Source: Candidatus Thorarchaeota archaeon (GTDB lineage Archaea > Asgardarchaeota > Thorarchaeia > Thorarchaeales > Thorarchaeaceae). Taken from it: a DNA stretch of 19,642 bases. Below the pieces are notes generated by a model. That model made no database searches and was not told the DNA's origin. It worked only from the letters and a program-made list of their open reading frames with translations. Both the position numbers and the translations under genes were made by a program. The number at the start of each line of letters is the position of its first letter. The stretch's first letter is position 1. This document shows positions 1,094-18,724 of the stretch, piece after piece. Location: positions 1 to 19,642 of the forward strand of contig JBHLQM010000014.1 of assembly GCA_048884785.1 (NCBI GenBank), in the 5' to 3' direction.

Positions 1094-1181
1094 TATTCCA
1101 CTTCCCTATCACGGTGGTGTTGGAGGATTGTGATAAATCTTAGTTAGAATGAAGATACGCTATGAAGTTGGAAATAAAGAA

Positions 1182-1269
1182 TGGTGCGGAGGGCGAGATT
1201 TGAACTCGCGAACTCCTACGAGACTAGGCCCTCAACCTAGCGCCTTTAACCTGGCTGGGCAACCTCCGC
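1182..1269 (-). tRNA. tRNA-Leu(GAG), CCA encoded
   Basis: Reverse complement GCGGAGG...CCTCCGC-ACCA. Anticodon arm CTAGG-TTGAGGG-CCTAG, long variable arm, T-arm GCGAG-TTCAAAT-CTCGC. Confidence 0.97.
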
Positions 1270-1478
1270 TTATGCATAAACCATCAGAGAATACTGCAGG
1301 TTGCCAGGTAAGCGCTTTCGCAGCATCTCTAAGTGATGGCTTCTAGTTTTTCGAATGTATTCCAAACATAAGGATTTCTATGAGTCATTTCGATAATCTT
1401 CTCTAGCCTGCCCTTCACTCCAATCTGATTTAGTACTCAAGTAAACACCTATAGGCCGCTCCTTCACGTTGCTAGTTC

Positions 1479-1952
1479 ATGAGCCTATCAGTCAAAAAAG
1501 GTCTTAGCTTTGGCCTCACATCTGGCGTTATCACAACCCTAGGAATGATAGTCGGTGTGAATGCAAGCACTAATTCCCGTTTGGCAGTTATAGCATGTAT
1601 TGTGGCGATTGCTATTGCTGATGCCTTCTCTGATGCTGTTGCAATGCATGTTTCTGAAGAATCCGAGGGCGTTCATATGAGAAAAGACATTTGGGAAGCC
1701 ACTTTAGCAACCTTCTTGGCCAAGTTCATATTTGCCCTAACTTTTGTTTTTCCAATTTGGTTTTTAGCTCTTGATATTGCAGTCCTAGTAGATATAATCT
1801 GGGGTCTTTTGGTCATGACTCTGTTTAACATCTTTTTAGCTCGTTCGCAAGAAGAAAATGTGTTACGAGTTGTCTTTGAGCATCTTGCAATTGCTATCAT
1901 TGTCATTCTAATAACATACATCGTGGGATCGTTTCTCTCCACAGTTGTCTAA
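1479..1952 (+). CDS. VIT1/CCC1-family membrane protein (putative Fe/Mn transporter)
   Basis: 157 aa, about 5 TM segments. SFGLTSGVITTLG...IADAFSDAVAMHVSEESE resembles the short VIT1/CCC1-like subfamily. Confidence 0.8.
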   Translation: MSLSVKKGLSFGLTSGVITTLGMIVGVNASTNSRLAVIACIVAIAIADAFSDAVAMHVSEESEGVHMRKDIWEATLATFLAKFIFALTFVFPIWFLALDIAVLVDIIWGLLVMTLFNIFLARSQEENVLRVVFEHLAIAIIVILITYIVGSFLSTVV

Positions 1953-16545: not shown

Positions 16546-16783
16546 TTATTTCACGACTCCTGATGCAGTAACCTCTTGATGTTCACAGACATCGCGATAT
16601 GGTCGACCTCCAGGACAAAACTAGTAGGATATCCTGTGCAGTCTACTGCATTACTTGTCACTTTTCTTCACCCCAGACATAGTCGTCTATGCTCTATGTC
16701 GGTTTAAGGAGCAGGCCAATCGACGAGAGATTATGTTTTAAGAGTTGCGGACTGACTATATCATTATTTCATTGGATTCGAAT

Positions 16784-17710
16784 ATGAAAACCTCAGAATG
16801 CAAGGAGGAGGAGAAAAGACTGTCAGATTTTCCTATTAACTGGAGTGATTTACAAACACCCGAAGAGATGGATATCAATCGTTATTTTGAGTATGACTCG
16901 TTTGCTATGGAGATGTTCAAGAGATGGCTGCCAGTTCTAAAGGAGTCTTCCGAAATTCTTGAAGTTGGTTCCGGAAGTGGTTTCTTCACCGGAAAACTCC
17001 ATCAGTTATACCCCAAAGCTGCCATTACATGTCTGGAACCAGATCCCAAGCTTCGAAAAACCTTGCAAGCAAAATTCAAAGATTTCAGAATAATCGAATC
17101 AACCTTAGAAGACTTGGAATCCGAGAACATCTTCGATATGTCAATCTCTCATATTGTAATTCATAATCTGAGAGATGCGCTCGCTGGAATTCGGAAGATG
17201 AAACAGGCAGTAAAGAAGAATGGATTTGTCGCATGTATTGAGCCAACACAAGGCTGGAGACATATTCTGCCAGACGACGACGTTAGAAACGCACTTGATA
17301 TTCTATGGAAGTTTAATGAAATAATATGCAGAAAAAGGTCGGAGGGTATGGGATCTGAGGAACGTCTGAATCCCTTTACGTATTCATATCCAGAATTCTT
17401 TGAGGAGCTAGGACTCAGAAACATTACCTGTTATGGCTGGTGCTCGATTTTCACATTATCCGATAATCGCTTTGACTTTAATGAAAGAAAGAGATGGATT
17501 CGGAGAAGAAAGGATCTCTATCTATCGCGAAAGGATGAGATAACAAGAATCCTCGAAGAATCTGGCATTGAATCCGAAACTATAGAGGGTGCCTACAGTA
17601 CTATCTTCGATTATTTTGGCACACTTGAAGATGCAGATGAAGAAAGTCTATCTCATATTCATGAACAAGAGATAGTCAATCGAGTTATAACAATCGGTCA
17701 GAAATCCTGA
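16784..17710 (+). CDS. Class I SAM-dependent methyltransferase
   Basis: Motif I ILEVGSGSG, ITCLEPD, FDMSISH.VIH, AVKKNGFVACIEP. Start uncertain: TTG 16745, ATG 16784, or CTG 16820 after GGAGGAG. Confidence 0.85.
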   Translation: MKTSECKEEEKRLSDFPINWSDLQTPEEMDINRYFEYDSFAMEMFKRWLPVLKESSEILEVGSGSGFFTGKLHQLYPKAAITCLEPDPKLRKTLQAKFKDFRIIESTLEDLESENIFDMSISHIVIHNLRDALAGIRKMKQAVKKNGFVACIEPTQGWRHILPDDDVRNALDILWKFNEIICRKRSEGMGSEERLNPFTYSYPEFFEELGLRNITCYGWCSIFTLSDNRFDFNERKRWIRRRKDLYLSRKDEITRILEESGIESETIEGAYSTIFDYFGTLEDADEESLSHIHEQEIVNRVITIGQKS

Positions 17711-17712
17711 AT

Positions 17713-18399
17713 TTATTCATGAGACCAGAACGAGTCCTCATCCTCAAAGTCCTCATCAAACTTACCTGCATCGATAGGTTCTTCTTCCTCAGCAGCCTCT
17801 TCAGCAACTTCCTCTTTCTTCGCTTTTTCAATAATCTTTACGAAGTCTGCGTGTGTGCGGAGAGGGATTGTGTGCGGACTGTCCAGCAGTTCAACAATGA
17901 GTTCCTCTTTTGCTGAATCAACTCGCGTGATTCTTGCACGTTCTCCTTTGAACGGTCCTGAGGTAAGTTCTACAACATCTCCAGTATTGAGACCCTCAGC
18001 TGCTGGCGGTGGTACCAAGAACTTGTCAATCTCATCGAAGGATACTTTCCCGCCTACTCTTCCACGAACATGCGGGACTCCGGAGATGGCAATCTCCACA
18101 TCTCGGAATTCTAGGGTTTCGAGGAAAACATATCCTCGCAGGGTTTCTGGAACTAGGATTGCCTTGACACGGCCTAAGAGTTGATTTCTTGAAACAAGTT
18201 TCGGATCACCGGTCTTCTTTGCCTTCGAGCATTTCTTCATGTGGCTCTTTGTGTCCTTATCAGTGGCAAACTCCTCACTACACCACGGACATGCCCATAC
18301 ATCTGTTTCACCGACTACTGCTGTGGTAATTAGGTCAGTCACGCCACGTTCCTGCCCTATAGTAGTCCTAACTGCATAGATACTGGTCTTTTCCTGCAA
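17713..18399 (-). CDS. spt5: Transcription elongation factor Spt5 (NusG family) with a zinc-finger insertion and acidic tail
   Basis: NGN domain (IYAVRTTIGQE ... AILVPETLRGYVFLE) and KOW domain (GDVVELTSGPFKGERARI). Located after secE, with SD GGGAGG and TTG start. Confidence 0.96.
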   Translation of the reverse strand: MQEKTSIYAVRTTIGQERGVTDLITTAVVGETDVWACPWCSEEFATDKDTKSHMKKCSKAKKTGDPKLVSRNQLLGRVKAILVPETLRGYVFLETLEFRDVEIAISGVPHVRGRVGGKVSFDEIDKFLVPPPAAEGLNTGDVVELTSGPFKGERARITRVDSAKEELIVELLDSPHTIPLRTHADFVKIIEKAKKEEVAEEAAEEEEPIDAGKFDEDFEDEDSFWSHE

Positions 18400-18433: not shown

Positions 18434-18622
18434 CTAGCCTTCTCCAAGACCCCATCCAGAAGTGATGAGAGTCATGAGAATTTGGATGATGAAGCTCAAC
18501 ATCCCGACTAGAAACATGGCCGCCAGGCTAACCTTTGTACTCATCCACAGCTCGCCTCTGGCTGGTTTTGTTGCCAACTTGAGAATCCGTCTGCTTTCTC
18601 TGATGAAATCGCCTAGACCCAT
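18434..18622 (-). CDS. secE: Protein translocase subunit SecE/Sec61-gamma
   Basis: MGLGDFIRESRRILKLATKP..EL...K......VGMLSFII. Lies between ftsZ and spt5. Start moved to ATG 18622. Confidence 0.93.
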   Translation of the reverse strand: MGLGDFIRESRRILKLATKPARGELWMSTKVSLAAMFLVGMLSFIIQILMTLITSGWGLGEG

Positions 18623-18724
18623 TGCTGTTTCACAATCCTGCTTTGAACTGATAGGAACAGTTCTTGGAGTGATTTGCACTCGGGATGGTCCGCTTTTAAC
18701 CCTTGCTGAGTAGCTAATATTGTA

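Follow-up and report, generated by a model that had tools for sequence, protein, structure and literature searches.

A predicted C2HC zinc finger inserted in the NGN domain of Spt5 in the Asgard archaeal family Thorarchaeaceae

The Spt5 protein of a Candidatus Thorarchaeota archaeon carries, within its NGN domain, a lineage-specific module that is predicted to fold as a C2HC zinc finger. The gene lies in the window analysed here, the 19,642 nt of contig JBHLQM010000014.1 (assembly GCA_048884785.1). The best overall explanation, to which we assign a probability of about 0.45, is that the finger would serve as an additional contact module, in which zinc holds a scaffold and a Lys-rich arm touches nucleic acid or a partner. 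Spt5/NusG is, to our knowledge, alone among transcription factors in being conserved throughout life, and the structure of its NGN domain is considered invariant.

The Spt5 gene (17713..18399, minus strand, stop codon included) encodes 228 aa from a TTG start, as read from the ORF translation. The Spt5 profile TIGR00405 matched residues 77-194 (profile positions 27-144) with 137.9 bits (cut-off 69.95; E 2.4e-40), PF03439 (Spt5-NGN) matched residues 70-128 (profile positions 28-84) with 57.5 bits (cut-off 22.4), and PF00467 (KOW) matched residues 140-170 with 28.5 bits (cut-off 22.3). According to Pfam and TIGR00405, the architecture is an NGN domain followed by one KOW domain, with the NGN match split by the insert. 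The first part of the NGN domain, residues 1-30 (18310..18399, minus strand), comprises strand β1 and helix α1, placed by AlphaFold2 at residues 6-12 and 17-30 with pLDDT values of 85-96. The second part, residues 77-130 (18010..18171, minus strand; Pfam NGN), includes β2, β3 with E94, α2, β4 and α3; β2 is its Spt4-pairing edge. The KOW domain, residues 136-194 (17818..17994, minus strand; Pfam KOW), has AlphaFold2 strands across residues 142-191 and is followed by an acidic C-terminal tail, residues 195-228 (17716..17817, minus strand), that ends in DSFWSHE and is predicted by AlphaFold2 to be disordered, with pLDDT <50 at residues 196-222. Tails in Thorarchaeaceae have a mean charge of about -14 over about 33 residues and the common ending DSFW[AS]H[DE]. 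The tail is part of the Spt5 gene and is separate from the finger. The upstream neighbour of spt5 is secE (18434..18679, minus strand; Pfam SecE), and the neighbourhood reads ftsZ-secE-spt5 ... L11-L1-L10-P1 from Pfam matches. The ftsZ-secE-spt5 arrangement is known from Asgard genomes (PMC10833476). Neither a second NGN gene nor a canonical Spt5 paralogue was found in this genome, which is 91% complete and returned a single NGN hit.

The whole insertion, residues 31-76 (18172..18309, minus strand), lies between α1 and β2 and is delimited by the break in the NGN and TIGR00405 profiles. Because these profiles begin to match at their positions 27-28 (residues 70-77 of the protein), and residues 1-30 are NGN-like, about 45 residues have been inserted at the α1/β2 junction. 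The earlier note had placed an insertion of this length between helix α1 and the next strand, in the interval 18172-18315, which corresponds to residues 29-76, and the profiles confirm it. The β1-to-β3 spacing is 82 residues here versus a canonical 38-45 in approximately 100 of the 111 parsable 50%-identity cluster representatives of archaeal Spt5, and the statement in the note that canonical archaeal Spt5 lacks such an insert therefore holds.

The finger core, residues 34-57 (18229..18300, minus strand), delimited with the AlphaFold2 model and homologues, consists of a predicted beta hairpin and helix that hold the four putative zinc ligands. These are encoded on the minus strand by TGT at 18289-18291 (C37), TGT at 18280-18282 (C40), CAC at 18241-18243 (H53) and TGC at 18229-18231 (C57). 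W35, F44 and M54 are also part of the core. The codons and the translation confirm the proposed motif, C37-x2-C40-x12-H53-x3-C57, with F44 four positions past C40. The core is followed by a Lys-rich arm, residues 58-66 (SKAKKTGDP; 18202..18228, minus strand), which was delimited from the net charge over inserts and has the consensus KKKKKKTGEP. The remainder, residues 67-76 (KLVSRNQLLG; 18172..18201, minus strand), is a third strand, seen in the AlphaFold2 models, and a conserved connector that leads into β2 and in which S70, N72, L74 and G76 are invariant across genera.

When Spt5 was used to query the protein database, 343 homologues were returned, the best 120 of which are 220-241 aa long, 68-100% identical and Thorarchaeota Spt5 wherever a name is given. 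C37, P38, C40, F44, H53 and C57 are invariant in 121/121 homologues (68-100% identical), and positions 36, 41, 45, 47, 49, 51, 52, 55 and 56 vary in the same 121 sequences. Spt5 has only three Cys in total, every one a ligand of the motif. As the ligands, P38 and F44 are invariant while the neighbouring surface varies, and as there is no Cys outside the motif, we conclude that the motif is not a chance occurrence. Among the 50%-identity clusters, the insert was found only in that of the query and in one truncated sequence.

The 51-residue insert was then used to query 400 genomes of the phylum, one per species. It was found in 83 of the 85 Thorarchaeaceae genomes, spanning 16 genera, and the two misses are assembly gaps: in one the gene is split over two contig ends, and in the other no Spt5 has been assembled. 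There was no real match in the 314 other Asgard genomes, in which two chance-level matches (E 0.003 and 0.009) fell in unrelated frames. The module is, as had been suggested, lineage-specific. In the only sister-family genome from the same order, Spt5 is 159 aa long, has the short loop NTDKIAG and lacks both the insert and the acidic tail. Within Thorarchaeaceae, the C2HC set is kept in the most divergent genera, where the inserts are only 39-49% identical. The conservation of the ligands, which the note had asked to be mapped, is complete in the 121 homologues but not in the whole family, as genus g6 has Glu instead of C57 in 3/3 genomes; the other 15 genera have Cys. In genus g15, an acidic stretch is found where other genera have the Lys-rich arm.

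Pairwise pN/pS was 0.36 for the finger, 0.38 for the linker, 0.15 for the NGN domain and 0.18 for the KOW domain, with synonymous sites near saturation. Judged from these values, the insert is constrained, though less so than the core domains. It is well supported that the insert was gained a single time, once the lineage had separated from the sister family, and that purifying selection has since maintained it in each of the 16 genera sampled. Unrelated inserts are found in the α1-β2 loop of at least seven other archaeal Spt5 lineages, among them helical segments 45-150 residues long and, in P0139, a second KOW domain. As so many unrelated inserts occur there, the loop looks like a permissive, outward-facing display site. 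A finger placed in a loop this tolerant could be functionally neutral and retained only as its misfolding would harm the NGN domain. However, it has been retained over 16 genera with an invariant set of ligand and core residues, its pN/pS is 0.36, and Spt4 has changed in parallel, so that we consider neutrality very unlikely.

The AlphaFold2 model of the full Spt5, built from a 91-sequence alignment, has a mean pLDDT of 82, and the insert lies at 85-90. The finger is predicted to include strands at residues 34-36 and 43-44 and a helix at residues 47-56, with pLDDT values of 87-90, and a third strand at residues 67-70. When the insert was modelled alone, the same elements were obtained with a mean pLDDT of 80.7 and the third strand at residues 37-40 of that model. 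As the elements are kept in the insert-only model, the third strand appears to belong to the module. The AlphaFold modelling that had been proposed as a check therefore returned a confident beta-beta-alpha finger with a third strand added. That the insert is a genuine, autonomously folding and, by prediction, zinc-stabilised finger, made up of a beta-beta-alpha unit, a loop and a third strand, is well supported.

A profile of 30 inserts compared with PDB sequences matched only classical C2H2 fingers. E-values for single fingers were approximately 0.07-3, and summed scores reached 1.6e-8 for a six-finger protein and 3.8e-6 for the archaeal-virus protein B-129. All of the 30 inserts scanned match zf-C2H2_4 below the cut-off, and the Pfam C2H2 thresholds were not reached by zf-C2H2_4 (19.1 bits, cut-off 27) or zf-C2H2 (14 bits, cut-off 25.2). 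Short single fingers commonly score under the Pfam C2H2 cut-offs. A spacing test for C2H2 fingers (C-x2-4-C-x12-H-x3-5-H plus an aromatic residue four positions past the second Cys) fits the insert as a C2HC/C2HE variant. Like the classical C2H2 fingers of GAGA factor (1YUI) and SUPERMAN (1NJQ), the insert has C-x2-C-x3-F-x8-H and a predicted beta-beta-alpha fold; classical C2H2 fingers gave the best sequence-profile hits, and the likeness to GAGA and SUPERMAN extends to one finger flanked by a basic stretch. Unlike classical C2H2 fingers, it has Cys as the last ligand (Glu in g6) and Thr for Leu at helix position +4, scores below the Pfam gathering threshold and is embedded within another domain.

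With the insert alone, Foldseek found nothing at E <0.9 and only C2H2 and MYST C2HC fingers at E of approximately 1; the insert superposes on the MYST C2HC finger with 0.7 Å over 25 residues, at a non-significant E-value. Look-alikes in the ESM Atlas were limited to sub-threshold C2H2 leads (score 0.75). A profile search of the organism's own genome gave one weak match (E 0.024), to the N-terminal C2HC finger of an NYN RNase, and a word-based search of proteins of 30-124 aa found no free-standing short finger homologue that might be the donor. In an exhaustive VIA-align search, the top match was AFV1p06 (2LVH), with Z 4.1 and an rmsd of 2.6 Å over 42 of 45 residues; this Z is within the noise range, the domain is small, and values of Z <8 may reflect a common arrangement.

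The solved structure of AFV1p06 is a beta-beta-alpha finger followed by a long loop, after which a third strand completes a sheet of three strands; zinc is bound tightly, Glu being the fourth ligand, the protein also binds DNA, and positions -1 and +2 of its helix are T and K (PMC3541406). The insert is like AFV1p06 in being a single finger with a predicted loop and a predicted third strand that may join the hairpin sheet, in having T/S at -1 and K at +2 and, in genus g6, in having Glu at the fourth-ligand position. AFV1p06 differs in that it is a free-standing 59-aa viral protein with the ligands C2H plus Glu and the spacing H-x4-E, and as it is 21% identical to the insert and the match is statistically weak, the likeness may be one of architecture rather than of descent. 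It provides an experimental precedent for the Cys-to-Glu change in g6 and for DNA binding by a single archaeal finger. As AFV1p06 uses Glu as its fourth zinc ligand, the g6 variant may still bind zinc. That the module is a captured finger of the archaeal-virus type, reading nucleic acid directly in the non-template strand or in the duplex near the cleft, we regard as improbable. At certain sequences or structures, Spt4/5 would then pause or else resist pausing, in an archaeal parallel to RfaH/ops or Bacillus NusG-dependent pausing that would rely on a eukaryote-style zinc finger buttressed by a co-evolved Spt4 loop.

UBZ4 and NEMO C2HC fingers also have a ligand set and spacing like those of the insert, and the earlier note had considered a UBZ-like role, in which the finger would read ubiquitin or a ubiquitin-like modifier on RNAP or chromatin. 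The spacing C-x2-C-x12-H-x3-C is that of NEMO/UBZ-type fingers, and weak hits were obtained to the UBZ domains of FAAP20, SLX4, Rad18 and NDP52 (E 0.02-0.05, Z 2.0-2.2). However, classical C2H2 fingers outscored UBZ fingers in all searches. The E2 family PF00179 (UQ_con) was found in only 1 of the 85 Thorarchaeaceae genomes, as one weak hit, versus approximately 296 of 314 elsewhere in the phylum, and there was no match to ubiquitin (PF00240) in this genome at 91% completeness. UBZ4 fingers have a ubiquitin-contacting Asp two positions after the His. At this position, residue 55, the homologues have K (67%), S (17%) or G (12%). As Thorarchaeaceae are almost alone in the phylum in being without E2 enzymes, and the contact residue is not conserved, the role is disfavoured and we consider it most improbable. 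Replacement of Elf1 by the finger was ruled out, as Elf1 (PF05129) is present in 84 of the 85 Thorarchaeaceae genomes.

The genome encodes one Spt4, whose presence the note had asked to be checked, adjoining rpoE' at G000:C70 (PF06093, 39.3 bits). It is 70 aa long and has its own four-Cys zinc site, CxxC-x8-CxxC. The Spt4 of other archaea has 59-62 aa; that of Thorarchaeaceae has 8-9 residues more, which form a loop, LPGRDxHxDPRK, between the NGN-pairing strand and a Ser-capped helix. Thorarchaeaceae have this loop, their divergent genera included, whereas the Spt4 of the sister family (61 aa) and of other archaea is without it. Its distribution matches that of the finger; as both lie on one shared branch and count as a single evolutionary event, the co-distribution is suggestive and carries no statistical weight.

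A predicted complex of Spt5(1-132) with Spt4 had an ipSAE of 0.67 versus 0.01 for the best control, a mark that 58 of 80 solved complexes attain, as do 2 of 110 mismatched pairs; these counts apply only roughly here, as alignments made for this analysis were used. Runs agreed in at least 92% of contacts with a partner pLDDT of at least 83. As similar complexes have already been solved, the score may reflect structures known to the model. The predicted contacts involve Spt5 residues 17-29 (α1), 75-76, 78-85 (β2), E94 and 121-129 (α3), and Spt4 residues 32-41, 47, 50-57, 64 and 67-68. Strand pairings of Spt5 78 with Spt4 38 and of Spt5 83 with Spt4 34 are antiparallel in the model, which places the start of β2, directly after the insert, beside the start of the Spt4 extra loop. 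No finger residue (31-74) is among the confident Spt4 contacts, only 75-76 at its base, an absence that speaks neither for nor against contact. The finger is thus predicted to emerge at the end of the shared Spt4-Spt5 beta sheet, with the Spt4 extra loop at the same end.

The contacts in the predicted heterodimer are the canonical ones described, with the roles of the residues involved, for Spt4/5 of M. jannaschii (PMC2896526). In that Spt5, E46 anchors Spt4, and A4, Y42 and L44 form the clamp pocket (PMC2896526). The anchor equivalent, E94, is invariant in the 91-sequence archaeal Spt5 alignment, and A9, Y90 and F92, which correspond to the clamp pocket, show 99-100% conservation among the Thorarchaeaceae homologues; by alignment, the residues that bind Spt4 and the RNAP clamp are kept despite the insert. 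Of the suggestion that the finger modulates the Spt4 interface, only the adjacency stands, as the canonical interface is kept and the finger is not confidently on Spt4 in the model. When compared with known structures, the best Foldseek hits (E 2e-15) were canonical archaeal Spt4/5 (TIGR00405; M. jannaschii 3LPE/4ZN1, P. furiosus 3P8B/3QQC and T. kodakarensis 9BCT). NGN and KOW domains, the secE-spt5-L11 neighbourhood, E94, the clamp-pocket residues, a four-Cys Spt4 partner and a predicted edge-to-edge sheet interface are common to both. Unlike the canonical proteins, the Thorarchaeaceae pair has approximately 45 extra residues with a C2HC finger between α1 and β2, an 8-9-residue Spt4 loop and a 34-residue acidic Spt5 tail.

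Another reading is that the finger is a structural brace only, a zinc knuckle that staples the loop and, together with the extra loop of Spt4, makes the NGN domain or Spt4/5 more stable without any external contact. Conservation is highest at the ligands, at the core residues and at S70, N72, L74 and G76 of the connector, and the surface residues evolve at roughly twice the rate of the core domains. Spt5 75-76 and 28-29 and Spt4 39-41 and 47 are in the predicted interface, and Spt4 thermally stabilises Spt5 in M. jannaschii (PMC2896526). However, the sister family and all other archaea form Spt4/5 without a finger, and a brace leaves the conserved +5 arm and the E42-E43 pair unexplained. We consider this explanation unlikely. 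It is somewhat less doubtful, though still not probable, that the finger and the Spt4 loop together form a composite surface that recruits a lineage-specific protein rather than nucleic acid; a termination, chromatin or translation factor would be examples of such a partner. In its favour are the acidic pair E42-E/D43, which is conserved, the surface of the helix, which is semi-conserved, and two insertions fixed on one branch at the same end of the shared sheet. The α1-β2 loop also displays the unrelated inserts of the seven or more other lineages, including the extra KOW of P0139, and the authors of the AFV1p06 study propose protein binding on the sheet face of that finger (PMC3541406). Against docking, there is neither a known nor a predicted partner, the confident Spt4 contacts include no residue of the finger, and the co-distribution of the two insertions is a single event.

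In the explanation that we prefer, an added contact module, the zinc site would have a structural role and the module would provide Spt4/5 with a further surface for contacts, facing outwards. Its helix face (S/T at -1, K at +2 and K at +5) and the Lys-rich arm would make sequence-unspecific contacts to DNA or RNA near the elongation complex, in a way comparable to AFV1p06, the single finger from an archaeal virus, or to a GAGA-type finger that has a basic arm, and such contacts could tune Spt4/5 residence time or pausing. Of 83 distinct inserts, 82 have an arm of 8-9 residues with a net charge of +2 to +7 (mode +5). That helix face and arm contact nucleic acid in this way is plausible but tentative. 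The finger core is neutral to acidic (mode 0 to -1) and includes the conserved E42-E/D43 pair, which speaks against contact with DNA or RNA. In P. furiosus Spt5, the loops that touch upstream DNA include H12, R64, H65 and R67 (bioRxiv 10.1101/2024.01.05.574147). From NGN topology, the α1-β2 loop would lie at the opposite end of the sheet from these β1-α1 and α2-β4 loops, and this far position also speaks against such contacts. The fold matches on which the comparison with AFV1p06 draws are statistically insignificant (Foldseek E of approximately 1, VIA Z 4.1), which counts against the reading based on it. As genus g15 has an acidic stretch in place of the arm, the arm cannot be a family-wide function, and no compensating change of charge between the arm and the Spt4 loop or the acidic tail was apparent in g15. 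On balance, and with low confidence, contact with nucleic acid, one of the three roles that the earlier note had suggested, is slightly favoured, and protein docking and a structural brace are the main rivals.

Full-text literature searches, reviews and surveys included, returned no description of a finger within the NGN domain, in line with the expectation of the earlier note. A 2026 survey of elongation-factor domains in 218 Asgard proteomes includes no NGN finger; it describes a C2HC finger of metazoan Spt6. The latter, the S1 Insertion Domain (SID), is a predicted C2HC finger inside the S1 domain (PMC13289920). Like the insert, the SID is a lineage-specific C2HC finger of about 50 residues within a nucleic-acid-binding fold of an elongation factor, and it has an acidic surface. 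As the factor, the host domain and the domain of life are all different, this is an analogy only. The DII domain of bacterial NusG (Thermotoga maritima 2XHC/2LQ8, Aquifex aeolicus 1M1G) is also a lineage-specific domain inserted in the NGN domain, though it is large, is not a zinc finger and occupies another NGN loop. A contribution of DII to recruitment and to the stability of the complex with RNAP has been reported (PMC7819879).

The practical consequence of the insert is small, in that NGN profile matches are shortened in Thorarchaeaceae Spt5. Its biological interest is that a whole Asgard family has a eukaryote-style zinc finger inside the NGN domain together with a matching change in Spt4. 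Among archaea, the Asgard group stands closest to eukaryotes, in which Spt5 later acquired many additional parts, and the α1-β2 loop appears to be a place where archaea have repeatedly added modules to Spt5. Should the module make contact with nucleic acid or a partner, the elongation complex would have a new regulatory input.

The loop between helix a1 and strand b2 of the NGN domain, where the Thorarchaeaceae finger lies, is a repeated site of insertion in other archaeal Spt5 lineages. Among the representatives of the 50% identity clusters of archaeal Spt5, unrelated inserts of 20–150 residues were found at this position in P0127, P0137, P0139, P0164, P0218, P0237 and P0263. The insert in P0139 is a second KOW motif, with two KOW stretches recognised by Pfam. 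Zinc-ribbon-like CxxC...CxxC motifs are present at different positions in two further representatives, within NGN past strand b4 in P0234 and as an N-terminal extension in P0254. Many cluster representatives, including P0142, P0149, P0150, P0155–P0157, P0161 and P0163, carry a beta-rich N-terminal extension of 130–230 residues that precedes NGN.

When the Spt5 finger profile was used to query the genome that includes the window (G000), the sole other match, which was weak, was a 161 aa protein (contig C8, locus L034, positions 1102–1587, minus strand). This protein has an N-terminal C-x2-C-x12-H-x3-C finger, which matches zf-C2HC_2 below threshold, and a Zc3h12a-like NYN ribonuclease domain (8e-11). 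In a phylum-wide search, the ubiquitin-conjugating enzyme E2 (PF00179) was nearly universal in the other sampled Asgard families (approximately 296/314 genomes) and essentially absent from Thorarchaeaceae, where a single weak match was returned from 85 genomes. The same search found no E2 in the one genome of the sister family, which belongs to the same order.

The Spt4 of Thorarchaeaceae (contig C70, locus L001, positions 1489–1701, plus strand, in G000) includes an extra loop of 8–9 residues, LPGRDxHxDPRK, that separates the NGN-pairing strand from a Ser-capped helix. This loop was not found in Spt4 of the sister family (L032, positions 1504–1686) or of other archaea.

The gene that separates spt5 from the L11 operon lies on the opposite strand and encodes a 321 aa SAM-dependent methyltransferase (window positions 16745–17710, plus strand). 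This gene is convergent with spt5 and ends 2 nt short of the spt5 stop codon.

Spt5 itself ends in a disordered tail that spans approximately 34 residues and carries a charge near −14 (window positions 17716–17817, minus strand), and DSFW[AS]H[DE] is its conserved terminus in Thorarchaeaceae. The acidic tail is missing from Spt5 in the single sister-family genome. Acidic tails with terminal aromatic residues were also seen in the Asgard Spt5 representatives P0127, P0128, P0131, P0158, P0251 and P0253. By analogy, this acidic, aromatic-ended pattern appears to resemble the tails of the ribosomal stalk or SSB type.
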